From contig CAJWYM010000005.1 of assembly GCA_913049555.1 (NCBI GenBank), forward strand, positions 6,719 through 70,718: DNA of 64,000 bases, in the 5' to 3' direction. The stretch's first letter is position 1. Every line of letters begins with the position of its first letter. The stretch comes from an uncultured Opitutia bacterium (lineage in GTDB: Bacteria; Verrucomicrobiota; Verrucomicrobiia; Opitutales; CAJWYM01). Made by a program: the position numbers and the translations under genes. Positions 3,811-48,199 of the stretch are shown piece by piece. The notes under the pieces are model-generated. The model saw only the letters and a program-made list of their open reading frames with translations, did no database searches and was not told where the DNA came from.

Positions 3811-4074
3811 ATAAAGAGCTGTACGCTTTACATTTTTTCATTTTCTTAATCCATCGAACTCTAGCATATTCTTAGGCTATTACTTTGAATCGAATTCTTT
3901 TTGTAAGAACCATTTCTGGCTTAGAGATTTTTTGGTATTTAACTGTTTCCGATTTCCTCTTTCAATAGCTCTTGCATCTTTCATTAGAATCCAAAAAAGA
4001 GAATCGATGATAAATATAAGATTTTTTTAATCCTCATCTAAAATTCGTCCTCCTACTTGCATTTATGATCGTTA

Positions 4075-4227
4075 AAAAAAGAGAAGATTTCTGAAAAAAA
4101 ATTGAACGTTTTTCAAACTCTTACTGTCTTAATAGATAGAACTTATTATTTTTTATAGTAATTGTTTTAGTTTGTATAGTTTGTATAGTTTGTTACGAAG
4201 GCGGGATTAGTTACCCCGCCTTCTTTG
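4075..4227 (+). ncRNA. candidate small-RNA transcription unit, copy A (A-rich tract + TTGAACG box ... conserved body ... terminator hairpin); paralogue of 22262..22398
   Basis: Aligns by eye with 22262..22398. Shared elements are GAAAAAA..TTGAACGTTTTT, TTATTTTTTATA, TATAGTTT, AGTTTGTTA and an identical GGCGGGATTAGTTACCCCGCC hairpin. There is no ORF, and similarity stops at the hairpin. Confidence 0.35.
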
Positions 4228-4230
4228 TGC
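4197..4230 (+). terminator. stem-loop GAAGGCGGG-attagttac-CCCGCCTTC followed by a weak T tract
   Basis: 9-bp perfect stem (4197-4205 / 4215-4223) with a 9-nt loop. The downstream tract TTTGTG is T-poor, so intrinsic termination is uncertain. Confidence 0.45.
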
Positions 4231-4431
4231 CCCCATTTTTCTTGCGCTTATTCTTTGATTGTTGTTCATTGAAAAAAATACCAGTCCTCTTGTTTGTCAA
4301 AGAATCCAATTATTTGTTCGGAATTATCCATTGAAAAAATTGGACTTTTAATTCTGGCTCTGGGGTATTTAAACCTGATGTTGACCTTCAGGATCTTTTC
4401 AAACTAAGATTCTTATCAATTAAATTTAAAG

Positions 4432-5022
4432 ATGGAAAAATTACAATCACTCAAGGGTCTATATGTACGCCAAAAAAAAGAATGGACTGAAATCCTCACT
4501 AACTTAGAGGGTAAAAACAAGTATGTAGTTTCCACACCTGATGGACATGAAATTTACTATGCTGCTGAAGATAAAGGATCTTTGCTACTTCGTTGGTTTT
4601 TAAAAGCTTTTCGTCCTTTCAATCTAAGCGTTATCACCAAAGAAAATGAGGTTGTAATTCGTGTTGTCAGACCCTTTAAATTTTACTTTCATCAATTAAA
4701 TATTCTCAATAATGAAGGAGAGTCATTAGGAGTTCTTAAACGACAGTTTTCTATATTGAGACGACGCTACACCTTGACAGACAAATCAGGAAAAGAAATT
4801 TTTCACTTACTAGGTCCTCTTTTAAAACCATGGACATTTGTAATTGTAAAAGATCATATTGAAGTAGGCACAATAAGCAAAAAGTGGAGCGGACTGATGA
4901 AAGAAGGTTTTACAGATGCTGATAATTTTAAAATTGTTTTTCCTGAAGAATGGAATATCGAATCCAAAGCTTTGTTACTAGGTGCTGTTTTTTTAATCGA
5001 TTTTGTGCATTTTGAAAAATAG
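4432..5022 (+). CDS. phospholipid scramblase (PLSCR) family protein
   Basis: The C-terminal block GTISKKWSGLMKEGFTDADNFKIVFPEEWNIESKALLLGAVFLIDFVHFE closely parallels the human PLSCR1 C-terminus ([48 protein letters not shown]). The upstream NKY..S..G..IY.A.ED motif is also conserved. Confidence 0.8.
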   Translation: MEKLQSLKGLYVRQKKEWTEILTNLEGKNKYVVSTPDGHEIYYAAEDKGSLLLRWFLKAFRPFNLSVITKENEVVIRVVRPFKFYFHQLNILNNEGESLGVLKRQFSILRRRYTLTDKSGKEIFHLLGPLLKPWTFVIVKDHIEVGTISKKWSGLMKEGFTDADNFKIVFPEEWNIESKALLLGAVFLIDFVHFEK

Positions 5023-5131
5023 GTAAAAGCAAAGCATCCTTATTATGAACGGAACTTGAAAATTTAATTTCAAATACATTTCACATTGAAATCATTACAA
5101 TTTTATTTTTTTGTAAAACGAAACAAACACA

Positions 5132-5500
5132 ATGACTCAAAAACACGAAATTACTAATCTCTTTGAAAAATGGAACCAAGCCCTTCAGACTGGTGACCCT
5201 GAAAACGTTGCAAACTTGTACTTAAAAGATGCAATTCTTCTTCCAACAGTTTCTAACCAAGTACGTCACAATCACTCTGAAATTATTGATTATTTTGTCC
5301 ACTTTCTAAAAAAGAAGCCTTTTGGGACTATCAATGAATCCAATATTAGAATTTTCAATGATATTGCTATAAACTCCGGAGTATACACTTTTACCCTCAA
5401 TAAGGATCTATCTGTTAAAGCTCGCTTCACATTTGTTTACAAGAAAATCGAAGAAATTTGGAAGATTCTTGAACATCATTCTTCAAAAATGCCTGAGTAG
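5132..5500 (+). CDS. NTF2-like protein, CaMKII-association-domain / SgcJ-EcaC family
   Basis: WNQALQTGDPENVANLY..DAILLPTVSN..R.....I.DYF.HFLKKKP.G.I pattern of bacterial CaMKII_AD-type NTF2 folds; 122 aa. Confidence 0.65.
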   Translation: MTQKHEITNLFEKWNQALQTGDPENVANLYLKDAILLPTVSNQVRHNHSEIIDYFVHFLKKKPFGTINESNIRIFNDIAINSGVYTFTLNKDLSVKARFTFVYKKIEEIWKILEHHSSKMPE

Positions 5501-5925
5501 AATTTAGACATCCTTTTTGTAAAAGAAAATTATTTAAATTATGAGTACTTCAAACTCACTTTACATCGATTGCCATGCATCGATGCCCAATTACAAATTT
5601 AGTAAAAATACCCCAAAAAACCACTCACACAGTTTTTGAAAGTCAATTACAAAGGTCAATAAATTGGATTCGATCGATTGAATCTCCTTCAACTTTAAAC
5701 CCAGATTTTTTGTTTATAAACCCTGTGCTACTTACAAACCTATATTCTTATTCAAACATTGATTTCAAGATTTACAGATTTGTTTATAAAAGTTTTTGAA
5801 ATCTTGATGAAGCTAAAAGATTCATCCCAACAGCAACAATACTTTCTCTTTGCGAGAAACTTTAAAAGCTGAAAGGTGATTCCAATAAATCAGCAAATAA
5901 ATCTTAAATAGAAAAGCTCAAAAAA

Positions 5926-6570
5926 TTAGGGTTTGTCTCCACGAATTGTTGAATCCACTTCTATTAAAATTTCATTCTTTCGCAAGCTAGGAACCGTCCA
6001 AGGTGGATCATATCCAGCATAACTAAACCCATTTTTTGTTTTTAAATTTTTTTTCGTCACCCAATCCTGTAACTTTCCTTTTTGTTTTTCAATATTCTCA
6101 AAATCAAAGTTACCACTGAAGGTGTAAACCACCATTCTCTTGGACTTCACTTCTTTTACAGTGACCTCAGAGTTGTTTGGTATTGGAACATTTTTCAAGT
6201 TGTACTTATTTGGCAAAACAAAAGACATTTTCCACTGTGAGCGATCTGGCTCCATGAAAACTGGAGCTGTCATAGCGATCTTCATTGAACTCGCTTCATC
6301 TTCAATTTTTTCGGAGGAAACTATTGAATTATCCCCACTGATATATTTGAAAAGTTTCCTAAAACCATTGCTGCTTGAATCCTTAGAATGAGATTCGCCC
6401 ATAATCGTTTCTGCAACCAAAAAATTGTCATACTCTCGGATTTCGAAAGAACCCTCTTTATCGACAACTGTATAGCCTAATTGTTCTGTTCCAGATCGAA
6501 TTCCCACAGCACTACATCCCAGAAATAGAAAAAACAAAGAAAATATTAAAAAAAAAGAATACCATTTCAT
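5926..6570 (-). CDS. SOUL haem-binding family lipoprotein
   Basis: Signal peptide with lipobox FLGC. SOUL/HBP motifs are present: EQLGYTVV...FEIREY, MTAPV, SFVLP, YTFSG, AGYDPPWT...RKNEILIEV. Confidence 0.8.
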   Translation of the reverse strand: MKWYSFFLIFSLFFLFLGCSAVGIRSGTEQLGYTVVDKEGSFEIREYDNFLVAETIMGESHSKDSSSNGFRKLFKYISGDNSIVSSEKIEDEASSMKIAMTAPVFMEPDRSQWKMSFVLPNKYNLKNVPIPNNSEVTVKEVKSKRMVVYTFSGNFDFENIEKQKGKLQDWVTKKNLKTKNGFSYAGYDPPWTVPSLRKNEILIEVDSTIRGDKP

Positions 6571-6700
6571 AAAATTTATTATTAGACTAACTAGAGCTTA
6601 TCAGTCGCCAAATATTCCATTTAATAGAAGCAACTGCTTTCAACTTCATGGATCGATTTTGTAAGTTTTCACTCATAAAGATGGATTAGGAAATGAAAGA

Positions 6701-7942
6701 TCAAACGATAGGGATCTCATTCCAATTAGTCGTAAAGGCTGGCGACCTTGTCTCTGCTTTTTGAATCCATTTTTTTTGATTCAACTGAGAACCCATCCGA
6801 ATCGTTCCTTTTCCCAATTTTTTATTCAATGCATCATACACCTTCATCGCCTTAGGGCTGTCTGGATACTTCTCAAACAAGGTCAATTGCTTCCGACTTG
6901 AACTTTCAAGAAGCCCGAGAAACACTCCAGCCTTCGCGTACTTATAATTATCCTTATAAATTAATTTTATCATTTCACTGATTAATTGAAAGATCGTTCT
7001 GGTATCCTGAATGGGTTCTTCCAATAGAAGGTGCTTCGAATTGCTGTAATAAGGATCGTCAGAAAAAGGACTTGTTCGTATATAAATTTGGATAAACTTA
7101 GTCGCCAATCCTTTGGCTCTCATCTTGGAACATGCAACATCAGCAAAATCCATCAAAGGCGACTTTAAGCATTCTAACGATTCAATCTTTTCTCCAAAGG
7201 ATCGAGAAACATGGATCCCTTTTTGTTCACTTGCCAGATCGTTGAGGCCAAAACACTTATAACCATCAAGCTCTCGTAAGGTTCGTTCTCCATTCACCCC
7301 CAATCTTTTTCTAATCAAAGACGGCTGAGCATATCGATATTGCTTCGCATTCAAGATATGCAAAGCGTTCAATTTTGGCTTGGTTTTTCGGCCCACTCCC
7401 CAGAGATCTTCAATTTCATAATTTTCAAGAATCGCATCGTAATCTGGATGATCGACCATCATAAACTTCACTCCATGACTCTTTTTTGCCAATTTATTAG
7501 AAATTTTGGCCACCGTCTTAGAGCTTGAGATCCCCACGCAAACTGGGATTCCTAGATCGCGGTATATACGTTTCCGGATTTCCATGCCAATGCGTGCACA
7601 ATCTTTATACGGAAGCTCCAAAAAACACTCATCAATCGAATAGACCTCCTGATCGATTGCATATTCATTTAAAATTTTCATCATTCGATCACTCAAATCT
7701 CCATAAAGTTTGTAATTGCTAGAAGCCACTGTGATTCGATGCAGTCGAATGAGATCTTTAATTTTAAAAAATGGATCCCCCATTTTAATACCCAATGCCT
7801 TGGCCTCATTGGACCTGGCAATCGCACAACCATCATTGTTTGAAAGAACAATGGTTGGTTTGTGTCTTAAATATGGCCTAAAAACTCTTTCACAACTTAC
7901 ATAGAAATTATTACCATCTACTAAAGCAATGACCGTTTTCAT
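6701..7942 (-). CDS. umuC: Y-family DNA polymerase V catalytic subunit
   Basis: [43 protein letters not shown] is a canonical UmuC N-terminus. I chose the start at ATG 7942, which overlaps the umuD stop (ATGA). The ORF-track start at 7978 adds 12 non-conserved residues. Confidence 0.9.
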
Positions 7943-8310
7943 TTTATCTTCTTTACGATCGAAGTGATCACCCCCCAAATTTCATTGTCTTGGTAGAGCT
8001 CATTAGGATTCGGTTGTGATTGTGAGGAAGCGTCAAATACCATGATTTTAAACTCACCATTTCTGCAAAGAACAACTAGATCGTTTTTGCTTGGAATCAC
8101 TTGCCTATCTACAATCAATATTTCATCCTTAGAAATACCAATGGACTTTCTATCGACACCAGATCTAAAGTAAAATGTGGACTGAGGATGCTTGATAAGA
8201 ATATCAGAAATACTGAGGGAAGGTTCCATATGATCCTCAGCTGGAGAAGGAAAACCCGCTGGAATTGAATTCTCTATATTAATATTTAAAATGGGATCAA
8301 AAGCTAACAT
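7939..8310 (-). CDS. umuD: UmuD-like S24 peptidase-fold protein (catalytic dyad apparently not conserved)
   Basis: [10 protein letters not shown]...KHPQSTFYF...[10 protein letters not shown]...GEFKI aligns with E. coli UmuD (CGFPSPAADY...QHPSATYFV..GDSM..ISDGDLLIVD...GEFTVKKL). It is translationally coupled to umuC. Confidence 0.75.
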
Positions 8311-8313
8311 TAA

Positions 8314-8329
8314 GTGTTATTATGTACAC
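8314..8329. promoter_or_regulatory. SOS-box-like palindrome GTGT-N8-ACAC immediately upstream of umuD
   Basis: GTGTTATTATGTACAC has the same 4-8-4 architecture and AT-rich core as the CTGT-N8-ACAG LexA box. It ends 3 nt from the umuD ATG. Confidence 0.3.
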
Positions 8330-8513
8330 CTTTTATGGGTTTTCAATATTTTTAAAATTAAAATAACAATTCATTCCTATTCACACCCTCAATCAACTTT
8401 CAATTTAGAGTCTCTTAAAATAATTGTACTCCAATTTAAAGAACTGTCTGTAATGACGCAGAGGGATCTAGAAGTAGTTTTTATAATAATGGAACGTGGG
8501 AATATAATCTAGA

Positions 8514-9056
8514 TTGAATAGCTCTTCAGAGGATATGATTAAATTTTCTTTTTTACATATCTACATTCTTATTATGGCCTCTATTCTAACAAAACTCTTC
8601 GGTGAGGATAACAACGATGCATCGATTACAATTCACTTGGATTTATCTGCAAAAAATCAGCGGAATGAAACGGTTCATTTAAAAGAGATCTCAAACAGCC
8701 ACGATTATTTGCTAGTTTACTTCTACCCTAAAGCAGACACTCCTGGTTGCACGGCACAAGCTTGTAGTTTGCGAGACTCTTACGCTGAGCTTAAAGAGAA
8801 GAATGTCAAAATTTTTGGAGTCAGCTCAGACAATGTTGGACAACTAGTAGCATTTTCCGAAAAATATCAACTTCCCTTCGACCTGCTTTCTGACCAAAAC
8901 GGTGAAATTGCAAAAGCCTTTTCTGTATCCAGCCTGTTTGGCTTTTATTCGCGCCAAGCATTCCTATTCGAGGGACAGAAATTGATATGGCGTGATACGA
9001 GTGCATCTACCAGAAAACAAGCGGACGATGTTTTAAAAATATTGAACAATAAATAG
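8514..9056 (+). CDS. bcp: Bcp-type peroxiredoxin (thiol peroxidase)
   Basis: YLLVYFYPKADTPGCTAQAC (PxxxTxxC with a resolving Cys five residues on), FGVSSD, LPFDLLSD. The start is uncertain (TTG 8514, ATG 8535 or a later ATG). Confidence 0.85.
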   Translation: MNSSSEDMIKFSFLHIYILIMASILTKLFGEDNNDASITIHLDLSAKNQRNETVHLKEISNSHDYLLVYFYPKADTPGCTAQACSLRDSYAELKEKNVKIFGVSSDNVGQLVAFSEKYQLPFDLLSDQNGEIAKAFSVSSLFGFYSRQAFLFEGQKLIWRDTSASTRKQADDVLKILNNK

Positions 9057-9418
9057 AATTCTACTCTTCCATTTTTGGCATCAGAATAGAAGAAATCAAC
9101 TCAATGGATTCATTTTAGATTCAAGCTTTAAGAACACCTCCAAAATACTGGATTTAGACACCTTTCATGACTCCAGTCATAAGCTCCGAATTCATACAAT
9201 CACCCGTTGTAATTTCTCATGCCTTGGTAGAAAACTTGTAGTTATCCTCTGAAACGAAGGATCCTAATTCAGAGACTCATTCACCAAAAGACCGTACTCA
9301 TAATTACCAGTGAACAAACCAATACCATCTAAATTCTCAGTTCCATTCCCAATTAGGGGTCATTATAATAATGAAAAGCATCAACAGCGAGGCTGTATTT
9401 TTTTGCATTCAGTTGAGA

Positions 9419-9544
9419 TTACAATTCTGAATCTTTGTCTGATTTTCGCTTTTTAATTGTCCATAGGATGTAAACCAGATAGGCAATTACGCAGACAACT
9501 ACTAGGGATACAAAAACAACTATATTTTCTTCTTGTTCAGTCAT
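9419..9544 (-). CDS. possible 41-aa single-pass membrane peptide (below the ORF-track cutoff)
   Basis: My own translation gives MTEQEENIVVFVSLVVVCVIAYLVYILWTIKKRKSDKDSEL. It has an acidic N-terminus, a 20-residue hydrophobic helix and a basic C-terminus. I saw no obvious Shine-Dalgarno sequence. Confidence 0.25.
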   Translation of the reverse strand: MTEQEENIVVFVSLVVVCVIAYLVYILWTIKKRKSDKDSEL

Positions 9545-9668
9545 ATGATAATTTTGAGAATAGCTATCCTTTAATAAATTACAAATAGTAAACCCCCTGA
9601 GCCACAGGATTGTTTTTTCATGTTGGATTAATATCTACGTTTTGAAAGTTTAAAAAGTGATTCAATCG

Positions 9669-10028
9669 ATGAAAAATTGGTATCTCTATATGATCCGATG
9701 TAAAAACGGTTCTCTATATACTGGAATTACCATAGATGTGAATCGAAGATTTTATGAGCATCAATTTGATCTCAAGAAGGGAGCAAAATACTTAAGAGGA
9801 AAAGGTCCGATTCATTTAGTTTGGCAGTATACAGTTGGGACAAAATCGAATGCAGCGAAAATGGAGTATCAATTAAAACGAAAGTCAAAAGCTTTTAAGG
9901 AGCGATTGATTGCAAATCAATCGAATCTTTACATGGAGAATTGGATTTTAGATATAAATAAGGGATTGCCCAAAAAAGATCTTGATAAAAAGGGATTGAA
10001 GGAGAACCTTGAAATCAAGGCTCACTAA
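9669..10028 (+). CDS. GIY-YIG nuclease superfamily protein (UPF0213-like) with a Lys-rich C-terminal tail
   Basis: WYLYMIRCKNGSLYTGITIDVNRRFYEHQ...GAKYLRGKGP matches the GIY-YIG motif. I preferred ATG 9669 over GTG 9657. Confidence 0.75.
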   Translation: MKNWYLYMIRCKNGSLYTGITIDVNRRFYEHQFDLKKGAKYLRGKGPIHLVWQYTVGTKSNAAKMEYQLKRKSKAFKERLIANQSNLYMENWILDINKGLPKKDLDKKGLKENLEIKAH

Positions 10029-10135
10029 ACCAGTTCGCTATTAAATTTGAAGGACGATTTGCTCTCTAGAATTTTATCAGTTACACACTTCATTTTACAC
10101 CCTCTCAAATTCTTAGAACTCTACATTGTTTCTTT

Positions 10136-10161
10136 AAAAAAAACAGCTCCTCGCTTTTTTT
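10136..10161. terminator. weak A8-stem-T8 bidirectional terminator-like element between convergent genes
   Basis: AAAAAAAACAGC-tcctc-GCTTTTTTTT lies between the GIY-YIG stop and the giant-gene stop. The GC stem is very short. Confidence 0.3.
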
Positions 10162-10204
10162 AAGATCCCTACATAAAAATTCGAATTTGAGTTTCATTTC
10201 CTTG

Positions 10205-13200
10205 TTAAGGGGTGACTCGTTTGTCCTCTTCAATGCTTTTTCTAGATACAAGGATTGTGGCTACATCCTCTTGAGGAACAGGAATCGTATTCAAATAAAG
10301 TTGGATATTGATCAGTAAATCCACTCGGATCTCTTCACTGGTAGACCTTTCTGTCGATTGAGGCAATCTACCAGCAAGTTGTTCTCTACCAGTGTAAACT
10401 TCTCCATCGCTGTTGATATGCATAACAACATCCTTGTCAGTGACCTCCGCTTTGTTAGCCGTCTTTTTTTCATTTTCATTATTCAAATCAAAAGAACTGG
10501 CCTTAGACAAAACATTGTCATCTTCCTCTTCTTCAATCAACTCCAAGTCCTCTTCCTCTTCCTCTTCCTCTTCTTGAATACTGACATATATTTGTTTGCT
10601 GCTGTAGACCTCATTGTATCTTCCATCAAAATCTCCTTTTTCATTCAGGTATTCCTCAGACTCTTCATTGTCAGTCAAATAGTACGGTCCATTCATTTTT
10701 TCTTTGCTTTTATATTTAGGAAAGTCAAAAGACCCAAAACGGAAACCCGGTGCGTATGGATCCGACCCTAGACTGGTTATATCCCTTGGACTTCCAGTCA
10801 TTGAGGGTAATATCACATCCGCAGGATCGACAAGGAGTAGCTTTTCCCAATAGAAACCACTCCCCCCTACAGGATCGATAGGATAAGACACACCATAAAG
10901 TTGGAAATCTCCCAACAAGCCCCCGAGATCCGCAAAGTATTCAGCATAAACAACCCATCTGGAATCCGTATCAAAGACACTCGCTCCAGCATAATTATAA
11001 AATTGCCCGCCTTGGCCCTGAAGAAGAATATCGTTGCCAGCACCGCTTGTTTTAATATTCAGACCACTGGATAATTTCAAGTCTCCGACTGTTCTAATAG
11101 TAACATCATTGGCGGTATTTCCAGTATTTATATCTCCGTCAATTGTGAGACCTCCTTGGCTGTCAAACAGATTTAGGGCACCTCCTCTTGAGACAGACCC
11201 CAATCGATTCAATTGATTGTTTGAATTTCCTAGGGCAATACTACCCCCAGAATCAACTGTAAGATTCTCACTGGTCAATCCATCTGTTTGGCTCACATCC
11301 GAGCCAGACTTCAAGCTCAGGGTTCCTCCAACATTTGTTTTACCCAAAGAAATACGATTGCTTGCATCTAGGTTCATATCCGTTCCCACGATACTCGTGT
11401 CCGTTGTTATGGATCCTCCTGAATTCGCATTTAGGGTTCCAGACACGGACGTTATTCCTAAATTCAAGTCATTGATATCCTTAAGATCAAAATCGGCACT
11501 GCTAATGAGATCTACCGTTCCCTGGAAATCATTGTTTTTTGTTGTCAAATCCGTTTTTATACCCCCATTAATATGGGTAAGCTCAGATTGGCCACTGACT
11601 GTCAAGTTCACTGCCTGATTGATTCCTGCAGCGGTAACTTTAAGGTTATTGACCAATAAGTCTCCTCCAGCCTCAGTTCCATTTAAACTCAAAGTAGAAT
11701 TGTCGAATACTGTGAGATCATTGGATGAAAGGAGAGTGTAATAAACTTCGTCTGAAAAGTTATTTCCTGAATAGCCCAGATCGATGTGGTCCCCATTAGC
11801 AACCCCAGCGACAAAGTAGCTTTTACCGCTGGATAGTATGGATCCACTGTTAGAGATTGAATTGCCAGCTGTGATTCTTAGTTCAGCTGAACTTACGGAT
11901 TGGGTGACTCCAGCTATATTTACATGATCCAAATCGATTACTTGAATATTTCCAGAACTAGAGTTGGACAAGCTTAGCGAGGCTACAGTCGTCTCAATCC
12001 AGTCACTGGAACCAATTCCTGTGGCAGCAGAGGCAGAGTAATTTCCAGTAGTCAGTATATTGTTGGCGGCACCATTGCCATCAATAATACTATTTGAGGA
12101 TGACTGAGTTAGGATTTGACCCGAGCCATTGCTTGAAAGAGTGTCTACTCTTATGTCTCCATCCGCGTAGGCTAAGATTCCTCCCGTTCCACTGTTTGAA
12201 ATCAACAAATCTCCGTTGACCGAATCATTTTTTAAATCTAAAACCTGGGAACCATCCAAGCTAGAATCTGAGTCTGCGGTCAGGATAAAATTGCCCGAAG
12301 AAGAAGTAAAACTGTAATCCATTGTCAATCTTACATTTGCAGTGGCACTGATGTTAATATTTCCACTGGCAGAAGTGATTCCATCGTTGATAATAATATT
12401 ATTTCCTCCAGCCCCTCCAGAAGACAAATAAATAATCCCAGAGTCCACAGTTTCGACGAGAGTCAGAGTTCCGCCGCTAGAGTCGTCCACTGTCAAAACA
12501 CCATTTGTGGTCGCTAGATCTATATTCCCTGATGTAGACTGTTTTGCATTCAAAACAGTGACTGCATCGGATTCCTGAATTTCAATATTGCCAGAGGTTC
12601 CATTCAAAAGGTTCAATATGTCTACGGACGTTTCCAGTTTATTTCCACTTCCGATTCCAGTCTCAGCAAGAATCTTTAAAGTTCCGGATGTATTTATCTC
12701 CAAGTCACTGTCTCCCCCATCAATCACTGCCGCATCCGTTGTGATTAAAATGGACTCTGTTTGAGGAGCCGAAACTGCATTATTGTTGGTAGAAATAAGA
12801 CCTCCTAATGTGATATTGCCAGCGTTCGATCCCGTAGCAGTCAGGTTGATTTTACCACTGCCTGCATTTACAACGGATCCATCCGACATGCTGATTCCAT
12901 CCCCTGAATCTCCATCTGTGACAGCGGTATTGGAGGTGACTGTAACATTTCCGGAACCTGTCGTAGTATAATCCCCCGCTGCCGTAAAGCTTACTGCATC
13001 GTCAGCAGTTATGGTTAAGGTTCCAGTGGAGGTGTTTAGGAGGGCTGCTTGTATATTGACATCGCTGTTTTGACCATCTGCATTCAATGTAATCGCAGCA
13101 TTCACAGCACTGATTCCTGATTGACCACTAGAAACAGTAATCGAGCCGGTAGTAGATTGGACGCTAATATTTCCACCATTGACTGTGTTGAATGCTCGAT

Positions 13201-16200
13201 CGATTGATACATCATCAGTCTCTACAATTTCAATGTGATTGCTTCCTGTATTGTCCAAATCTAGACTGTTGGCGGTTGTTTCAAGAGCGTTGCCACTTCC
13301 TACTCCGCTGATAGCATCTATAACAATTCGACCACTTGTTACAATATCAACATCCGTATCTCCTCCATCCACCACTCCTGACTGATCAGAAGTAATTGTT
13401 ACGGATGTATTAGTAGTGTTGGTAGTAGTCAAACCACCCAGCGTGATATCCCCAGCATTTGAACCTGATGAAAGAAAAGTAATGGTTCCACTTCCCGAAT
13501 CAATGACTGCTCCATCTGACATTGTGATTTTATCCCCTGAATCTCCATCAGTGACAGCGGTATTAGAAGTAAGTGAAATATCACCCGAACCCGTTCCAGA
13601 GATATCTCCGGCTGAGGCCAATAATATGCTATCATCAGCGGTCAATAGAATGGATCCTGATCCAGTATTTAGAATGCTACTATTAATATTAAGGTCTGAA
13701 TTTAAGCCGTTTGCATCCAGAGAAATGGACCCCTCTGCAGATACAATCGAGACCCCGTTTGTAATCGATCCATTTGTAGTACTCAAAGATACAGTGCCAC
13801 TTCCTGATGAAGTAATAGTCCCAGTATTAGCAGTAGTAATTGCTCCATCTGATGATAATGTAATGGCACTCCCTGTTCCGAGAGAACCAGTTCCATTTCC
13901 AGTTCCAACTACTGAACTCAAGGCAGCGTTCACTGTCATTGCATGAGTATCATCGGATCCTGTATCTCCAGTTGTAATGCTTATATTACCAGAATGACCT
14001 CCATTGCCATTGCCCCCAGTCGAATTTCCACCATTCGCACTGAATGGAACTCCAATAATTAGGCTATTGTCAGAGGTATTGACCGTTATAGAACCAGCAT
14101 TACTTCCATTGCCTGAATTATTACCAGCACCATCCGTTGTAATATCCCCAAGTAAAGTTATGCTGCCCGTGTTCCTAGCAAGTATACTGACATTTCCTGA
14201 AGCAGTTCCTGTGTCACTATTGGCCGTTGTTAAAAGATCACCATCAGCTGATGAACTAAAATTCCCTCCAGAATTTAAATTTACGTTTCCTCCCTTTGTG
14301 GTTACAACATTGCTCAACGCTAAAGTATTTGCGAGCAAAGATCCATTATCAATGGTTACAGCACCTGTCCCTGATGTTATAATTCCACTTCCTCCACTTG
14401 CAGAACTTAAAACAGTGGTAACACCATTAGAAGTGATCGAAACGTTGCTATCCCCCGCCTGAGACACCTTTACTACATCCAGCGCATCTGTCTCAACCAT
14501 CTGAATCGCTCCCAGAGAAGTGTTTGTCAAATCGATGCTAGGCAAAGTGGTTTCAATGGCATCACTCACCCCAAAACCAGTAGTAGAGTTGACAACGAGA
14601 CGACCCGGAGAAACCACATCTACATAGGTATCACCCCCATCAAGTACAGCCGCTCCGGTTGACAATTCAATGGAGCTTGTGGATGAATCCGTAGTTGTTA
14701 AACCGCCAAGAGTAATATTTCCACCGTGGGTGCCAGTAGATAATAAGTCGATTGTTCCACTGCCAGCATCTATCAAAGAATCATCAGTCATACTTATCAC
14801 ATTGCTGGAATCTCCAGAGGCACTATTGACATTCGCAGTAATAGAAATGTCTCCAGTAACAGTGGTGATGTCTGAAGCGGCAGTAAATAGGATACTGTCA
14901 TCCGCATTTAGAGTTATGTTTCCGGAACTTGCATTGGAAGCTTGGACTCCGACATCGATATCAGAATTGATTCCATTAGCATCTAGGACTATATTCCCAC
15001 CAGTTCCAGTAGCCCCCTCTCTAAATTGGATGCTTGAAGTCATGGTTCCACCGCCTGAAGAAGTCACAACTAGGTTGTCCAAAGTATAGGGTGTGCCAGG
15101 AGAAAGTGATTTGATGTAAAGAAATTTACCATAATTAATAGCAGTCACTGCACTATTGACATTGGCATCCGCGTTGATTGCAGTTTCAAGAGCATCAGCA
15201 ACCTGCAAGTTGGCATCAGAAGCGGATAAAGGTTCTGATGAAATTGTGAACCCATTAATTTCGACCGCAAAGGTATCTCCGTCAGTAAGTGTTCCATTAG
15301 AAATTGTAATACTGTCCTCTTGAAGTCCTTGAATAAGAGAGATTGAGGCATCAGAAAGTGAAGAGCCCTGATTTGTCTGGATAGCAATTTCACCACTGGA
15401 ATTTTGATTGTTTATTTGAGATACGTTCAATGCATCCACTTCATCGATCGCAATGTGGTTGGAGGTGAAATTGATGGCATCTAACTCTGTTATCTGGGTC
15501 TCAATCGCATTTCCAGATCCAATCCCATCCAAAGCCTTCACAATCAACTTTCCAGCATTGCCACCGGAACCATCAGAAACATTGATGGTGGTCGAGTTGT
15601 TATCAATCAAGGCCCCATTGATATTGAGATAAATTTCGCCCGTATTGGAGATCTGATTGAGATTCATGTCTGAATCTTCAATTATACTCACTTTGTTACT
15701 TGCTGCAGTCACACCCAGGGTTCCAAAATTGGTTGTTTTAGTGGTATTCTGCTGAACATTGCCATACTCACTAGATCCTAACACGATTTCTCCAGTTCCA
15801 GTAGATGACAAGGTAGCATCTGAAACCACATTGATAAAAGTGGACTCACTATTCAATGTCCTATCGCTTATTCCCCCGGAGGCATTCTCAAAATTAAAAT
15901 TACCCCCAGCATCCACATGTTTTAAAAGACTTTTACTCCCATCATAAACATCCACATTCCTTCCTACAAAACTGATATTTTGTTGAAAACTATTGGCCGT
16001 GTTCGTTAGTGTAATATCCTTGCTTGTATTTTGAGTGCGAAAGGAAGTCACACCGTTAGCAATCAAGCCACTAGTTTGAATGATATTACCCGGATTGATA
16101 GCTGGACCTGTAAGCGGAAGAGAATCTGCAGTATCGGTTGTAATAGAAATATTCCCATCAAAATCATTGTCAGCATGCGACAAAACAATTGCATCTCCCG

Positions 16201-19200
16201 ACAATTTAGAGTTAGCAAAACTACTGGCTGAAGAAACAGAAACCACGACCAAATCCGCAGTGACAGTGTGGGTTCCGGAATCAAGATCCTTTGAAATGTT
16301 CTGGGATTCGAGATCGATTAAATTATTCAATTCATGCGTTAAATTGATATCTGCTCCATCTGATTTTCTGATAACGATATTATGAGTACCCTCAGAGCTC
16401 GCGCTGTAGCCTCCCTGATAGAGAGTGGTGTCCGCTTGCTCATAAACATCTCCAGTGGCAACCAGTGAGGTATCTCCATGCACAAGTATCGTGGCTCCGC
16501 TCACAGAGGCATAGTCACCTGTCGTAGTCACACTGAAGTCTCCTCCGATTGTTGAAGTGTCCAAATAGGTGTCCGTCGAATCCCTTAATTCAACATTACC
16601 CTTACCAGTTGACCCAGCGGTATTGATTGTAGTTGTTTGATTTACGGTGATTCCTTGCATTTGCGTTACAGGGATTCCAGCTGTAGGTCCCGTAGTGAGA
16701 GAAAAACTTCCACCGACTGAAGAAGCAGAACCATTGCCGATGACAAAGCTGTTGGCATCTACATAAGTAGCGTTTGCAGATCCAGAGGTGCGAATACGAT
16801 TTTCCCCTTGAAAATCATTGATTGTTCCCTCAAGGCTGATTCCTCCACCATTGCCATTGATATCTGAATTTCCATAAACCACCAATTCCCAAGTGTCACT
16901 ATCTTGACTAAACCCCAAGGAATCCACCACCAGATCTCTCACTATTAGATTATGCTTCAACTCAATGGCAGTAGTATCTGTAATACTAATATTATCCTCA
17001 AAATCAAAATTGGTAAAAGTGATGTCGTTATTGAATTTATTTGTAGAAAAATCCAAGATTAGATCATGACTACTGGTATCAAAGGTGGATGTTCCTGAAA
17101 CTCTTATTTCATTGTCGTCTGTCATGTCGCCATTAGAAGTAGCAACCAAATTTCCACCAATAAGCGTTGTATTACTTAAAGATAAGTTTAAAGTCCCATT
17201 ACTATCTACTGTCAAATCATTGGAAGTTGTAGATCCACCACTTCCACTTAAAGTCAAAGCATTGGTATCCCGAATACTTACTACTTGCCCACTATTAATA
17301 GTTACATCAGAAAAATCATTGTATTGATTGTCTAAGGTTATATCTCCGGTGCCGCCCAATAAGATCAAATCTTGATTTCCAGTAATCCCTGAATCACTTT
17401 GAGTTATATTTCCAGAACCTGTATCTGTGCTAAGGGTTGTGACACCAGTCATCGATGAGGTTCCAAAAGATAGATTTGTATCGGTCGTCCCAACGGTTCC
17501 AATCAAATTATTACTAGAGGATGCTGAAGCTGTAAGCCCTCCTATGAATGTGATTGAATCTTCTGTAGTATTATTGAAAGTAACAGTTCCTGTATTCTGC
17601 AAAGTAGTCGCATCACTGATCGTTGAAGTTTGATTGCCAGAGGAGCTATTGAAGCTAAGATTATAATCTTGAGATGTAGTATTAAGGGTATTAGCAGTCA
17701 ATGCACCCTGAAAATCAATAGTTCCAGTAGTGTCCGTCAGGGTCACTGTAGATGCATCCACAGTGCTACTGAAAGTAGTTCCTCCTGATTGTGTGACCGT
17801 AACAGTCCCAAAACCCGTTCCAATAGTTCCTACCGAAACTGTTCCCGTGTTGTTGATTGTTAGATTTGATTCGGTCCCACTTACGCTCGTGACATCTATG
17901 TTGCCACTGGATCCATTCCCAACCGTGAAGGTTACTCCGTTAGACAATGAGGAAGCCCCTACATCGATCGTTCCACTCCCTCCATTCAATGTGGTGTCTG
18001 CTGTTATATTTACAGCTCCTATATCGATTTGCTGATCCGTTGCTAAGATTGTACCTGCAAGATTTTCTGTGGACCCCGCTGTTGTATCCAATCCCCCAGT
18101 AAATTCAGTGCTGTCTCCAGATCCGTCCCCTATTGTAATCGTTCCCGTATTGTTAAAAGTTGTGTCTGTAGTGATCGCTCCTCCTCCTGTCATCGATACA
18201 TCGTATCCTCGACTGAATGTGGTCAAAGTATTTGCCGTCACTGATCCTGCCAAACTAACAGATCCAGTAGCCCCCGCATTGTCTTCCTGTAAAGTCAATG
18301 TGCCAATACCCGTTTCAATTGCTCCAGAGACACTGATTGTTCCGCTTCCTGATTCCAAGGTCACGTCTTCTCCAGCGACTCCTGTGATGGATGCAACTGA
18401 AAGATTGCCTCCTCCGGTATTGGATGAATCCAGTGTCAGAGTTTGACCCGATATTAGACTAACCTCTCCCAAAGTAATGTTGTCGTTGGTGCTACTAATC
18501 GTTCCTGCTGCTTTGATCGCTCCTGAATTTGCTGTCACTCCACCATTAAAAGCAATGGTGTCTGCTGAAGCATCCCCAAACTGAGTGGTTCCTGTATTGG
18601 AAAAAGTAGAGGCACTTCCTACAGAATTACTAGACCCCTTAATGGTTACATTAAAAGCGCCACCCGCAGAAACAGTCATTCCAGAGGAGACATTTAAATT
18701 ATCGTTAAAAGCAACGGTTTGTCCATCAACCGTGTCCGTCAGGACAATTGAAGTGCTGCTAACAGAACTTTGAAAAGTTGTATCATTGCTTTGAACTACA
18801 GTTAAGGATCCAAGTGGGGTTGTAGAGCCCACGGCTCCGACAATACTAACGGTTCCCCCTGTACCACTGTTTAATGATAAATTATTGGATCCGTCGATGG
18901 TGCTGGAAAATAAAATATCTCCAGCTCCTGTTGAACCGGAACTCACTTGAGCATTCCCACCCAAAGTGACTTGATTGGAAAAAGTTATATTATCGTTGGA
19001 TGTCGTTATATCTTGGTTCAAATTGATTGTTCCTCCAGATGCCTGAACCCTGAGGGCATTAAAATTCGAACTATTGTTGGAAAAATTCACATTTCCCGAC
19101 CCACCCGCATTTAAAGTGCTCAATCCAGAAACATTTCCTGAATTCGCAGAAGATATATTATCAACTGTGATCGCTCCAGAACCACTGGTATTTAGATTGA

Positions 19201-21733: not shown

Positions 21734-22261
21734 GAAGTGAAATGAAAAGAAAGAGCTTCAGTAGAAACTCATAAAAAAGATACTAAACTTAACATACATT
21801 AAAAATATGTCAAATAAGCTCCATGCTAGCGTTCAGCATAGCTGGATGGAAAATTTTATATTTTTATTTCCTGAAACACATAATTTAAATACAAAGGTTG
21901 CACAAATCACTTGGAAAATAATAAACTATTATTGGTAAATAACATAAAAATATATCCCTTCTAAAAAGTTTCAAATTTTTAAAAAGTGACTATTTTTTAA
22001 AAAAAAACTTCATACAGAAATTTTAAAATAAAATTTTTATACCATTATCAATTAATAGTTAATGGAATATTATTGTTACTCCCTTATAAAATCCTACAAC
22101 GCATTCATCTTTATTACGATCGAATACAAAAAGGGAATTAAAAAGACTCAGAGGAGATTCAGAATGAAAAAGAACGAACCTTCCATTCTAGACCCCCAAA
22201 TTTTCATTCCGTTCAAGGATTGATATAGAAAACGAATGAAATGAGAACTAAAGATTAGGGA

Positions 22262-22398
22262 TAAAAAAATTTGAAAAAATTTTTTGAACGTTTTTTTTAA
22301 TGAGCAGTCTATCATATTGTGAATTTATTTTTTATATTTTATAGTTTATAGTTAAGCAGTTTGTTATGGGCGGGATTAGTTACCCCGCCCTTTTTTTT
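22262..22398 (+). ncRNA. candidate small-RNA transcription unit, copy B; paralogue of 4075..4227
   Basis: It shows the same ordered blocks as copy A (AAAAAAA..TTGAAAAAA..TTGAACGTTTTT, TTATTTTTTATA, TATAGTTTATAG, AGTTTGTTA). It ends in GGGCGGGATTAGTTACCCCGCCC followed by T8, and contains no ORF. Confidence 0.4.
22368..22398 (+). terminator. Rho-independent terminator (GGGCGGG-attagttac-CCCGCCC-TTTTTTTT)
   Basis: A 7-bp all-G/C-rich stem and 9-nt loop are followed immediately by eight T residues on the plus strand. The minus-strand reading lacks a T tract. Confidence 0.7.
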
Positions 22399-22555
22399 GG
22401 ATTGATCGATGATACCCTCATTCGGGTTTTAATTTTTTAGAAAAATAAGTTTTTTCCGTTCTTCATTTCGTATTTTTTTAAATGACCTAATAATCCATTT
22501 TAAGAGTCAAATAATCCATAGGCATCTCAAACATTACTCATATAATTGTAAATCT

Positions 22556-24064
22556 ATGTTGATTTTAAAACCTATTTTCGTTTGTTACAAAAGATTCAGT
22601 CTTCTGATTGGAACCCTCATTTTAGCATTGAGTTTGAATGCTAAGGTGCATGGAAAAAATCCAAATGTTCTGTTTATAGCAGTGGATGATCTCAACGATT
22701 GTATTGAACCATTAGGGGGCCACCCCGACTCAATCACTCCAAATTTCAATCGATTGGCTAAAATGGGAGTGACTTTTGAAAATGCCTTTTGCAATGCGCC
22801 CATTTGCAACCCTTCGAGAGTCAGTCTTCTGACTGGTAGAAGACCCTCTTCAACTGGAGTCTATGGTTTCCAACCAATGCGCGAAGTTTCCTCTTTAAAA
22901 AATGTGGTTACACTGCCTCAACATTTTAAGAATAATGGGTACCATGTGATGGGTTCGGGAAAAATATTCCACGGTTTTGGAGAACCCCATGGACCTGACA
23001 AAAGATCCTTTGATGAGTATGGGCCTTTCAATCCTTCCGGAAAACAAGCTAAAAAAATTTGGGAAGACAGGATACCCGGAACTCAGCTTAGATGGGCAGC
23101 AAAAGAAAACCTTGCAGAAGATCCCTACTTAGATGGAAAAGCAGCAAGGTGGACGGCTGATAAACTGAAAAAGTCCCATGACAAGCCTTTCTTTTTGGCT
23201 TTTGGCATGGTAAAGCCCCATCTTCCATTATACGCCCCAGAAAAGTTTTTCAATCTTTACGAAAAAGAAAATATGACGCTTCCTGTCATCAATAAAAAAG
23301 ATCTCGAAGACCTTGATGGGATGGCAGCGAGTCAACAATCAAAAGGAATTAAAAGAGCCATAAAAGTAGAAGAATTGTCCAAAACCAAAGATTTAGTTCA
23401 TGCTTATCTAGCGACTGTTTCCTACATCGATTCATTGATTGGTGAAGTTTTAGATGCTCTAGAGGAAAGTCCTCACAAAGAAAATACAATAATTGTTCTA
23501 TGGAGTGACCACGGTTACCATATGGGTGAAAAAAACACTTGGAGTAAATCAACACTTTGGGAGGAATCACTTAGAATACCACTATTTCTACATGCTCCAG
23601 GAGTCACACCCATGAATGTCCGATGCAAAAGAACCGTTTCTTTGATTGATCTTTACCCAACCCTCATAGACCTATGCAATTTGCCTAAAATTGAAGTACT
23701 TGAGGGAAGAAGTTTTCTACCGCTGCTTAAAAAAGCAGATCATCCATGGAATTATCCGGCTCTTTCCTGCAATGGGTTGAACAACTTCAGTGTTAGAACT
23801 GAGAATTGGCGTTACTCTAAATATAGAGATGGATCCGAGGAACTGTATGACCACTCCAAAGACCAAAAAGAATGGAGAAATCTAGCGAAAAATCCAGAAT
23901 ACGATTCTGTAAAAAAGGAACTTGCTCAACACATTCCAAAAAAACCCGTGAAAGAGGCCGAGACTCTATGGACTTCCATAAAAGTAAGCACACAAGAAGG
24001 GGGAACTGAGGAAAGAAAAAGAAAGTATCAGGAATTGATTGAAGCCCAGAAAAAACAAAATTGA
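22556..24064 (+). CDS. Cys-type sulfatase (iduronate-2-sulfatase-like), secreted
   Basis: Signal peptide; NVLFIAVDDLND metal-binding start; formylglycine motif CNPSRVSLLTGR; downstream WSDHGYHMGE. Confidence 0.9.
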   Translation: MLILKPIFVCYKRFSLLIGTLILALSLNAKVHGKNPNVLFIAVDDLNDCIEPLGGHPDSITPNFNRLAKMGVTFENAFCNAPICNPSRVSLLTGRRPSSTGVYGFQPMREVSSLKNVVTLPQHFKNNGYHVMGSGKIFHGFGEPHGPDKRSFDEYGPFNPSGKQAKKIWEDRIPGTQLRWAAKENLAEDPYLDGKAARWTADKLKKSHDKPFFLAFGMVKPHLPLYAPEKFFNLYEKENMTLPVINKKDLEDLDGMAASQQSKGIKRAIKVEELSKTKDLVHAYLATVSYIDSLIGEVLDALEESPHKENTIIVLWSDHGYHMGEKNTWSKSTLWEESLRIPLFLHAPGVTPMNVRCKRTVSLIDLYPTLIDLCNLPKIEVLEGRSFLPLLKKADHPWNYPALSCNGLNNFSVRTENWRYSKYRDGSEELYDHSKDQKEWRNLAKNPEYDSVKKELAQHIPKKPVKEAETLWTSIKVSTQEGGTEERKRKYQELIEAQKKQN

Positions 24065-38473: not shown

Positions 38474-40051
38474 TTACTTTTTTGGTTTAATCTCAGCAAA
38501 CGTATGCGGCATCTTTTCTAAAGATTGAGCCAACAGTGTCTTCATCTTCTTCAATTGAGGGGCGTATTCAGGATTTTTAAAGAGATTGTTTTGCTCTCTA
38601 GCATCCTGTTTTCTATCGTAGAGTTGGTCAAAGTCATAATAGTGCTGCGGGTAGTATCTCACTCCATTCTTTCTGAAATTTTTACTCGCTGATGAGGCGT
38701 TGTAATTTACATTTGTAAGTCCCCCTTGTTTTTCAATCTCCGGAAGTTCAAAGTCTGGAAATCTCAAGGCGATATATTTCCAATCTTTGGTCATAATCGC
38801 CCTACCGTATCCGACTTCCAACATCAAATGTTGACGGACTGGCTCTTTATTTCCTTTGAGTAATGAATAAATACTCACTCCGTCAAAAGGATCTTCCACA
38901 GAGAATCTTGCCATCTCTAAGAGAGTCGGAGCCACATCAATGTTAGCCACGTATTCACTGCAAACTTGATCCTTAGCAATTACTTTCGGCCACTTCACAA
39001 AATAGGGCACTTGAGCACCTCCATCATACAAGGCCTCCTTTGCATAATTGCCATGGTCGCTGATAAAAAAAACAGCCGTATTTTCAGTGAGTCCACATTC
39101 CTCCACTTTGTTTAGAAGCGAACCCACAGCATCATCTACCCAAAGCATTCCAGCAGAGACCTCAGGAAGACCCGCTTTTTTGATTCGCTCCAAGACACTC
39201 TTGCGACTAGGCATTCCCGACTCAGGCAAAGCGTCTAATTTTCCACCCGGAGTCAATAAAGGATCTGCATCCACTAAGGTTTCCACAATTTGCATTCCCT
39301 CACCATGAGGGAGGGTCAATGCGTAATATAGGAAAAATGGTTCCTCTTTGTTTTGCTCGATAAAATCAATCCCTCTAGCAGTCATCCACTCTGGGTTGTG
39401 ATGCGCATATTCAGAAGGATACCCGGTGCTTCCAAGGGCTCTTGCATTGTTTGAATAAAATCCATCTACAAAATCAAACCCATAATTTTTTTTGACATAT
39501 TGTACGCAATTTTGATAAAAATCTCCAATCCTCCTTTGTCCCTCCTGAGATTCCGGGCGGACTCCTTTGGGAAACCATAATTTTTCTTCTTTATATCCCC
39601 TAGGACCCCTTCCCAAATGCCATTTACCTACGATCCCTGTTTTGTATCCCGCGGCCTGTAAATGATTGGCAATTGTTTTTTCTCCTGGTCCTAAGATCGC
39701 ATTGAAATGAACATTTGCTTCTCCACCAGCTGGATAATTTCTGTTTCTCCAAGAAGATGAAGGAATGTTTTGCAGAGGTTGGGAACGACTCGCATACCTT
39801 CCAGTCAAGACACCATATCTACTTGGGGTGCAAATTGAAGAAGTCACAAAAGCTTGATTAAAAATCAATCCCTCTTTTGCTAAAAGGTCGATATTAGGAG
39901 TCAACAACTCCTTATTTCCTAGGACTCCCAACTCATCACAATCAAGATCGTCTACATAAATTACAATGATATTGGGCTTCGAGTGGGCCAGTAATAAAAA
40001 TGGATAAAAGAAGATAAAAAAAAGAGCGAACAATTTTGTGTGGGTTTTCAT
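38474..40051 (-). CDS. Cys-type sulfatase, secreted
   Basis: Signal peptide; PNIIVIYVDDLD; formylglycine motif CTPSRYGVLTGR; GKWHLG; ISDHG. Confidence 0.9.
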   Translation of the reverse strand: MKTHTKLFALFFIFFYPFLLLAHSKPNIIVIYVDDLDCDELGVLGNKELLTPNIDLLAKEGLIFNQAFVTSSICTPSRYGVLTGRYASRSQPLQNIPSSSWRNRNYPAGGEANVHFNAILGPGEKTIANHLQAAGYKTGIVGKWHLGRGPRGYKEEKLWFPKGVRPESQEGQRRIGDFYQNCVQYVKKNYGFDFVDGFYSNNARALGSTGYPSEYAHHNPEWMTARGIDFIEQNKEEPFFLYYALTLPHGEGMQIVETLVDADPLLTPGGKLDALPESGMPSRKSVLERIKKAGLPEVSAGMLWVDDAVGSLLNKVEECGLTENTAVFFISDHGNYAKEALYDGGAQVPYFVKWPKVIAKDQVCSEYVANIDVAPTLLEMARFSVEDPFDGVSIYSLLKGNKEPVRQHLMLEVGYGRAIMTKDWKYIALRFPDFELPEIEKQGGLTNVNYNASSASKNFRKNGVRYYPQHYYDFDQLYDRKQDAREQNNLFKNPEYAPQLKKMKTLLAQSLEKMPHTFAEIKPKK

Positions 40052-46017: not shown

Positions 46018-46019
46018 AG

Positions 46020-47174: not shown

Positions 47175-47191
47175 AAGGTTTAAACTTTTTT

Positions 47192-48199
<1,008 letters not shown>

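Follow-up and report, generated by a model that had tools for sequence, protein, structure and literature searches.

Why should two intergenic stretches of one bacterial genome, each standing before a functionally unrelated gene, share the same series of short sequence blocks and end in the same hairpin? The original prediction, made for the 64,000-nucleotide stretch of DNA that we analysed as a whole (the window), took these two stretches, copies A and B, for paralogous promoter-to-terminator units and proposed them as a candidate family of small-RNA genes. Are they such genes, or do they represent a shared leader of the genes behind them, a purely DNA-level module, or a dispersed repeat?

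The window originates from an uncultured marine bacterium with a GC content of 39%. Contigs nearly identical to it are present in marine metagenomes, including those of Tara Oceans, and the NadA protein encoded in the window is closest to proteins of Verrucomicrobiota/Opitutales, e.g., Coraliomargarita, Lentimonas and Cerasicoccus. Sister lineages of the window's species were reached via NadA. Only two of them were sampled (loci L028/L029 and L030), with a NadA identity of approximately 84%, while all other NadA sequences were at most 75% identical. Ten conserved window proteins were also tried as a route to relatives through the members of their 90%-identity clusters; all of these members were at least 96% identical and thus belonged to the same species, and the approach was rejected.

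Two units in the window and a third in a sister species

The collinear, block-by-block match predicted for copies A and B was borne out, all listed blocks being exact and following in the same order:

4102 and 22284, plus strand: shared block TTGAACGTTTTT
4146 and 22325, plus strand: shared block TTATTTTTTATA
4187 and 22358, plus strand: shared block AGTTTGTTAYG

Gapped blastn aligned positions 4092/4094-4226 with 22263-22395 at 68-70% identity (E ~3e-10), which was by far the best blastn non-self match of either intergenic region, all others having E values of at least 0.001. The 21-nt hairpin sequence reported as identical in both copies, GGCGGGATTAGTTACCCCGCC, was indeed found at 4200-4220 and 22369-22389 on the plus strand. 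Even with 3 mismatches allowed, it had only these two matches in the window, with 0 expected from 100 shuffles. When the hairpin was excluded, the body from TTGAAC to the hairpin was still 67% identical between A and B (z = 5.2), a score reached by none of 500 shuffles. The similarity both starts and stops sharply, as had been claimed, with nhmmer envelopes at 4086-4233 and 22268-22402, and the flanks are unrelated, the sequences past the terminator differing between the two copies. Both copies are present in same-species contigs.

The absence of an ORF from the units also stood, in the sense that none is shared between copies A and B on either strand; a small-peptide reading was rejected accordingly. 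The only ORFs of at least 30 aa touching the units are 4211-4309 (minus strand), 4227-4334 (plus strand) and 22148-22315 (minus strand), and none of them is called in public contigs. Downstream, the scramblase gene (start at 4432) begins 205 nt past the hairpin-tail region of copy A and the sulfatase gene (start at 22556) 158 nt past that of copy B, in line with the predicted 160-200 nt. A direct repeat, TT(G/A)T(T/C)CATTGAAAAAA, is located at 4262-4277 and 4324-4339, in the space that separates the copy A terminator from the scramblase gene. The sequence at 4334-4349, AAAAAATTGGACTTTT, shows 88% likeness to the unit's A-tract plus -35 box (AAAAAATTGAACGTTT).

A third member of the family, copy C, was found in a sister species at L030:11010-11150. 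It occupies a 210-nt gap directly after nadA, i.e., the same place as copy A, and both A and C sit behind a fur-nadA operon. Copy C consists of an A/T tract, TTGAACGTTTT, GTCTAT 16 nt further on, TTTTAGTTTGTAGTTTGTTT, and its own hairpin followed by a T run. Its hairpin, AAAAAAGCGGAG-TGAATG-CTCCGCTTTTTT, is unlike that of A and B, while the upstream boxes and the UAGUUUG repeats are kept. Body identities were 67% for A-B, 68% for A-C and 67% for B-C (z > 5), so that the three copies are equidistant in this part. An identical 3' module (AGTTTGTTA plus the hairpin) is common to A and B and absent from C. The same boxes at nearly the same spacing, the UAGUUUG repeats and the terminator in a third member indicate that this is, as the original prediction had assumed, a real family and not a chance likeness.

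Further members were sought with an nhmmer model of the three sequences, on which A, B and C themselves scored E values from 1e-26 to 1e-30, a circular result given that these three built it. The model detected no further member in the window, in L031 (8 kb to its left) or in L041 (10 kb to its right), and none in the sister lineage L028/L029 or in the more distant relative L039 (GC content 48%). The copy count is thus two in approximately 82 kb of the window's species (the window, L031 and L041) and one in 21 kb of L030. Three known members from two species are too few for covariation statistics.

Public genome and metagenome contigs, neither of which include this organism, and viral contigs returned chance matches, all of which we rejected: a single match of the 19-nt hairpin core in public genome contigs, situated in a GC-rich Erythrobacter coding context; 12 unrelated terminators matching a loop-free pattern in public metagenome contigs; and one match of a three-block pattern in viral contigs, inside a phage ORF. 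Plasmid and phage collections contained no match to the unit. At the gathering thresholds of Rfam 15, there were 0 matches in the whole window and 0 in L028, L030, L031 and L041. In the permissive E-value mode, the best Rfam match on the units was L20_leader; its 13 and 23.7 bits are at chance level, the gathering score being 58.7. To the left of the window, L031 3477-6578 includes 2.9 kb that are gene-free in the gene table and yet are spanned by a 1033-aa ORF; no Rfam match was found there, and the stretch is a gap in the gene table rather than an RNA gene.

It is also important to describe the surroundings of the units. The scramblase and the sulfatase beside them are without close orthologues, their next-best matches being 65% and 51% identical, respectively. 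Synteny with the two sister lineages (L028 and L030), compared over window positions 3811-22555, stops directly after nadA. Such evidence indicates that both units border accessory gene blocks. The DNA between the two copies includes, at 6701-8310 on the minus strand, a Y-family polymerase (IMS/ImuB-like) gene overlapping a short Peptidase_S24 (LexA/UmuD-like) gene. This pair looks like an SOS-mutagenesis cassette; in one strain (L002/L033), the polymerase gene is longer (536 aa). The same DNA also includes an ORF of 3842 aa (10205-21733, minus strand) carrying a TPS (two-partner secretion) domain at its N-terminus as well as DUF5649 repeats, on account of which we regard its product as a filamentous-haemagglutinin-like exoprotein.

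Four sulfatase genes are found in the window (22556-24064, 38474-40051, 42064-43890 and 62285-63838), and three more lie just past its right end (L041 11761-16657). They neighbour MFS sugar transporters and a LacI regulator, a dense assemblage that suggests the use of sulfated polysaccharides. A row of genes at 43914-48190 on the minus strand encodes a NeuB/PseI-like protein, a glycosyltransferase, a DegT aminotransferase and a Polysacc_synt_2 dehydratase; members of this cluster are named by sources as genes for the synthesis of pseudaminic-acid-type nonulosonic acids. The 30 nt before the start codons of all 44 window genes are A/T-rich and without a recognisable Shine-Dalgarno sequence.

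Promoter-like boxes, strain variation and predicted RNAs

The best-kept element of the family is TTGAACGTTTT, identical at 11 of 11 positions in A, B and C. It is preceded in all three by an A/T tract, and (G)TCT(A/T) follows TGAACGT after 16 nt in B and C and after 17 nt in A. The promoter-like features of the window are as follows:

4074-4101, plus strand: A/T-rich, UP-element-like tract of copy A, directly upstream of the -35-like box (read from the sequence)
4102-4113, plus strand: -35-like box of copy A, TTGAACGTTTTT
4126-4131, plus strand: -10-like box of copy A, GTCTTA, with a 17-nt spacer after TGAACGT
22262-22283, plus strand: A/T-rich tract of copy B, upstream of the -35-like box
22284-22295, plus strand: -35-like box of copy B, TTGAACGTTTTT
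22307-22312, plus strand: -10-like box of copy B, GTCTAT, 16 nt after TTGAACG
22189-22216, minus strand: further two-block motif TTGAACG-N16-GTCTA, an exact pattern match

The window has two exact matches to TTGAACG-N16-GTCTA, one in copy B and the other at 22189-22216 on the minus strand, compared with none in 100 shuffles. The second site lies 68 bp from the box of copy B in divergent orientation and faces the giant TPS-domain gene (10205-21733, minus strand), approximately 450 nt upstream of its ATG (21733). That an exact site faces a protein-coding gene argues that the two-block motif is a putative promoter class serving more than these units, rather than a part of the RNA.

Which kind of promoter might this be? 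The motif is unlike the sigma70 consensus, and C has nothing corresponding to the sigma70-like matches (TATAGT) within A and B. Judged by its letters, it resembles promoters of the RpoE-type ECF (envelope-stress) class. In the sigmaE model of E. coli, a -35 element GGAACTTTT and a -10 element (T/C)GGTCAAAA are separated preferably by 16 nt, with an A/T-rich UP region and a discriminator of 5-6 nt (PMC1312014). The units have tGAACgTTTT, a spacer of 16 nt (B and C) or 17 nt (A), and aGTCTAT or tGTCTTA, with the A/T tract upstream. Compared with GGAACTTTT-N16-(T/C)GGTCAAAA, the GAAC, the TTTT, the spacing and the GTC agree, whereas the A-rich end of the -10 element does not. Thus, the likeness is partial (GTCTAT versus GGTCAAA), the consensus being that of E. 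coli, from which the sigma specificities of Verrucomicrobiota may differ. Neither the window nor the fetched loci yielded an ECF sigma gene.

Two other promoter types were considered and rejected. The position of copies A and C behind a fur-nadA operon prompted a test for a Fur box, but the best matches to the 19-mer Fur consensus (12, 10 and 10 of 19 in A, B and C, respectively) equal the window background. As for the Bacteroidetes-type TAnnTTTG promoter, TAGTTTG appeared by eye to be one base short.

Variation among strains is reduced within the unit. Eight same-species sequences of locus A differ at 3 of 135 unit sites, compared with 37 of 486 flank sites (Fisher p = 0.027). The predicted RNA of copy A is variable at 1 of 92 sites versus 7.6% in the flanks, and at its sole variable site, 4198, an A to G change replaces an A-U pair by G.U. 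Across 17 same-species contigs, the hairpin shows no variation. The strain variants TTGAAC to ATGAAC and TCTTA to TCTCA in copy A leave the GAAC and TC cores intact. The ends of contigs L005 and L007 near the predicted start were also considered as evidence for the start of a transcript and were set aside, an assembly break at a polymorphic site being the more likely cause. On the minus strand at 3880-4062, gene callers annotated an ORF of 53-60 aa in other strains (L001-L004), which is reduced to 34 aa in the window. Its shortening here and its location where the intergenic region is most polymorphic make it unlikely to be a real gene.

With the start of the copy A RNA placed 5-6 nt past the -10-like box and its end within the U-rich tail, the predicted transcripts and their parts are as follows:

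4137-4229, plus strand: predicted RNA of copy A, approximately 92 nt (promoter geometry, PMC1312014, and fold)
22318-22398, plus strand: predicted RNA of copy B, approximately 80 nt (putative boundaries)
4168-4196, plus strand: three tandem TAGTTTGTA units (UAGUUUG motifs) of copy A, unpaired in the consensus fold
4197-4223, plus strand: terminator-like hairpin of copy A, GAAGGCGGG / loop ATTAGTTAC / CCCGCCTTC, then TTTGTG
22368-22398, plus strand: terminator hairpin of copy B, GGGCGGG / loop ATTAGTTAC / CCCGCCC, then T8

Before the hairpin, there is a body of approximately 60 nt that is rich in U, A and G, and the RNAalifold consensus structure comprises the terminator alone. No alternative fold that could serve as an antiterminator or an aptamer was obtained with RNAalifold, and inspection of the body revealed next to no C/G runs that could pair with either arm of the stem. 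This consensus fold, which holds only the terminator, speaks against a riboswitch or an RNA-only attenuator.

The predicted 9-nt tandem repeat of copy A is present, with TAGTT at 4168, 4177 and 4186 (period 9), and a fourth TAGTT (4208-4212) lies inside the terminator loop. In copy B, UAGUU motifs are found at 22342, 22349 and 22377, together with AGUUUGUUA at 22358. Altogether, A, B and C have 4, 3 and 4 UAGUU motifs, respectively (P at most 0.007 for each), and within the window, three or more TAGTT per 90 nt are met only at units A and B. Units of the repeat recur every 9 nt in A and every 7 nt in B and C, a difference more in keeping with recognition of a flexible RNA than with phased DNA binding. 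In the -150 to +60 regions of the 44 window genes, no 8-nt complement of the core was found. A 7-nt complement before a SnoaL gene was rejected as a target, such a match being at chance level.

The units end in a G+C-rich stem-loop followed by a U tract, that is, in what defines an intrinsic terminator, and the fold z-scores of the three predicted RNAs range from -3.8 to -5.2. The original prediction was right about the identity of the 21-nt stem-loop and wrong about its extent, since the stems run beyond the 21-mer. The stem of copy A comprises 9 bp (4197-4205 with 4215-4223) and that of copy B 7 bp; immediately beyond the shared core, the former has an A-U pair and the latter a G-C pair. Copy C has a stem of 13 pairs followed by T7 and was flagged by the terminator scan, which missed A and B only through their 9-nt loop, its limit being 8 nt. 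The interruption of the U tract in copy A (UUUGUG) may make its termination leaky.

In copy C, the hairpin keeps its position while its sequence is wholly different. At a background identity of 67%, 21 of 21 matches would arise by chance with a probability of approximately 2e-4, and 9 of 9 matches in the loop with approximately 0.03. These low probabilities lead us to either of two explanations for the 3' module of A and B, namely strong genome-specific constraint or homogenisation by gene conversion. The claim that conservation of the loop suggests a function beyond termination was not supported by the comparison with copy C, in which the loop differs, so that no such conservation is family-wide. 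The identity of the loop in A and B could as easily reflect homogenisation within the genome as a function of the loop.

Proposed small-RNA genes and the competing readings

A conserved promoter, a noncoding stretch of about 80-92 nt and a terminator, situated beside unrelated genes in two species, are most simply read as a small-RNA gene. On the strength of these sequence features, we believe with moderate confidence that A, B and C would be independent, paralogous or orthologous genes of a small non-coding RNA of 80-92 nt. The A/T tract and the two-block promoter would start a short RNA that the intrinsic terminator ends; the identity of the two-block motif as a promoter, the use of an ECF-type sigma factor, the ends of the transcript and its action in trans are what we infer here. 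The unstructured UAGUU(UG) body would be the likely functional surface, with its repeats acting as base-pairing seeds or as places where an RNA-binding protein attaches.

The original prediction had gone further in one respect, holding that the units are independent and dismissing a shared leader. Its first part is consistent with the motif located approximately 90 nt upstream of the hairpin, with the lack of an ORF or an antiterminator, and with both downstream genes in the window having sigma70-like promoters of their own. The dismissal was too hasty, however, since a gene on the same strand follows in all three units, in the sister species at a distance of merely 50 nt. If the units were cis-acting leaders, the promoter would drive the downstream gene, the hairpin would be an attenuator, and a protein bound to the UAG/UAGUU repeats would decide on read-through in the manner of HutP or TRAP. 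The genes in question encode the scramblase, the sulfatase and, in L030, a histidine phosphatase; the last starts 50 nt past the terminator with no convincing promoter of its own in between. The weak U tract of copy A would permit read-through as well, and UAG-N4-UAG in B and C is like the NAG spacing of HutP (PMC2425495). Against this, distances of 205 and 158 nt from the terminator to the ATG are long for attenuators, and the spacer sequences are unrelated. Directly before each window gene stands a sigma70-like promoter (4381-4410 for the scramblase and 22519-22546 for the sulfatase), and the RNA offers no alternative structure. The UAG spacing is inconsistent between copies (4, 5, 6 and 9 nt), the second XAG-rich site that HutP needs downstream of the stem is lacking (PMC2425495), and no HutP/TRAP-like protein was seen among the window proteins scanned. 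Moreover, the three downstream genes have unrelated functions. We therefore regard the leader as unlikely, though as the most serious of the competitors.

More doubtful still is a DNA-level module without a functional RNA, in which a promoter of this sigma class would be combined with TAGTT operator repeats and the hairpin would serve as an insulator. The two-block motif facing a protein-coding gene agrees with such a module, and so do the repeats, which are direct and placed between promoter and hairpin. Nevertheless, the change of period, from 9 bp in A to 7 bp in B and C, fits phased DNA binding poorly, a motif is present within the hairpin loop, and polymorphism is lowest precisely in the transcribed part (1 of 92 sites). 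A promoter with a strong terminator approximately 90 nt away would yield a short RNA regardless. As for a dispersed repeat (a REP, a MITE or the end of a mobile-element remnant) at the edges of variable gene blocks, it is tempting to recall that the genes next to the window copies lack orthologues in the sister species (next-best matches of 65% for the scramblase and 51% for the sulfatase) and that, in all three lineages, synteny is lost immediately behind nadA. This reading nonetheless appears highly improbable to us. Neither terminal inverted repeats nor target-site duplications, by which the original prediction would have recognised a MITE or REP-like repeat, were found, the only inverted repeats being A/T runs of which none is common to both copies. 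A count of two copies in approximately 82 kb and one in 21 kb of L030 is low for such a repeat, the copies are 67% identical with indels instead of near-identical, and the plasmid and phage collections had no match.

Overall, the sequence evidence would most likely describe an undescribed family of small regulatory RNAs with an ECF-like promoter in marine Verrucomicrobiota. A more daring scenario can be drawn for these small-RNA genes, and we consider it a long shot. An ECF-sigma stress regulon, marked by TTGAACG-N16-GTCTA, would co-induce the giant two-partner-secretion exoprotein and the UAGUU small RNAs, which would act as decoys for a sequence-specific RNA-binding protein or as multi-seed regulators, with a motif also in the terminator loop and with the 3' modules of the paralogues gene-converted.

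Nearest known systems and possible meaning for the organism

Several known regulators invite comparison with the proposed small-RNA genes. CsrB, RsmY, RsmZ and CrcZ are protein-sequestering small RNAs whose binding motif is GGA or CA-rich. With the Csr/Rsm type, the predicted RNAs share a short motif repeated in unpaired stretches and in a hairpin loop, within a small RNA ended by a terminator. Their motif, however, is UAGUU instead of GGA or a CA-rich sequence, and there are only 3-4 copies per RNA.

A parallel in architecture is offered by the sigmaE-dependent small RNAs of enterobacteria, MicA, RybB and MicL. These depend on an ECF sigma factor and pair, with the help of Hfq, with mRNAs of envelope proteins. 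MicA (approximately 70 nt) and RybB (approximately 80 nt) have near-consensus sigmaE boxes (PMC1804206). These RNAs and the units are alike in being short and intergenic with a Rho-independent terminator, in the two-block promoter, putatively of ECF type in the units (GGAACTTTT / 16 nt / GTCAAA in the case of sigmaE), with an A/T-rich region upstream, and in that no part of the locus is better conserved than the promoter boxes. The units are analogous to MicA, RybB and MicL and not homologous, as Rfam holds those families and gave no match. They differ in the -10-like box GTCTAT, in belonging to the phylum Verrucomicrobiota, and in having a UAGUU tract in place of a single 5' seed.

The hut terminator of Bacillus bears on the leader reading. 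HutP recognises NAG triplets with spacers of approximately 4 nt beside the G-C stem of the terminator, and requires two sets of three XAG motifs that flank the stem with a linker of 12-17 nt (PMC2425495). The units likewise have NAG triplets next to a G-C-rich terminator stem upstream of a gene. Unlike the hut terminator, they are without a downstream XAG set and their spacing is irregular; HutP, moreover, is a protein of Firmicutes, and none was seen in the window. Finally, we would like to comment on the terminator loop, which is itself required for the regulation of fepA by the small RNAs SdsR, RseX and ArrS (PMC11979758). This precedent, from another organism and with another sequence, is relevant to the 9-nt loop that A and B have in common. 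Given that the loop of copy C differs, such a function, if any, would not be family-wide.

Regulatory RNAs have hardly been charted in the PVC superphylum, for which one review counted 8 small-RNA families versus 345 in Proteobacteria (PMC9029176). Going by sequence features, the units are a candidate under either reading. If they prove to be leaders instead, they would define a small regulon with protein-mediated attenuation. If the small-RNA reading is true, a family of small RNAs with an alternative-sigma promoter would provide a handle on stress regulation in an uncultured, widespread marine polysaccharide degrader, and its promoter motif would be usable for tracing the regulon in metagenomes.
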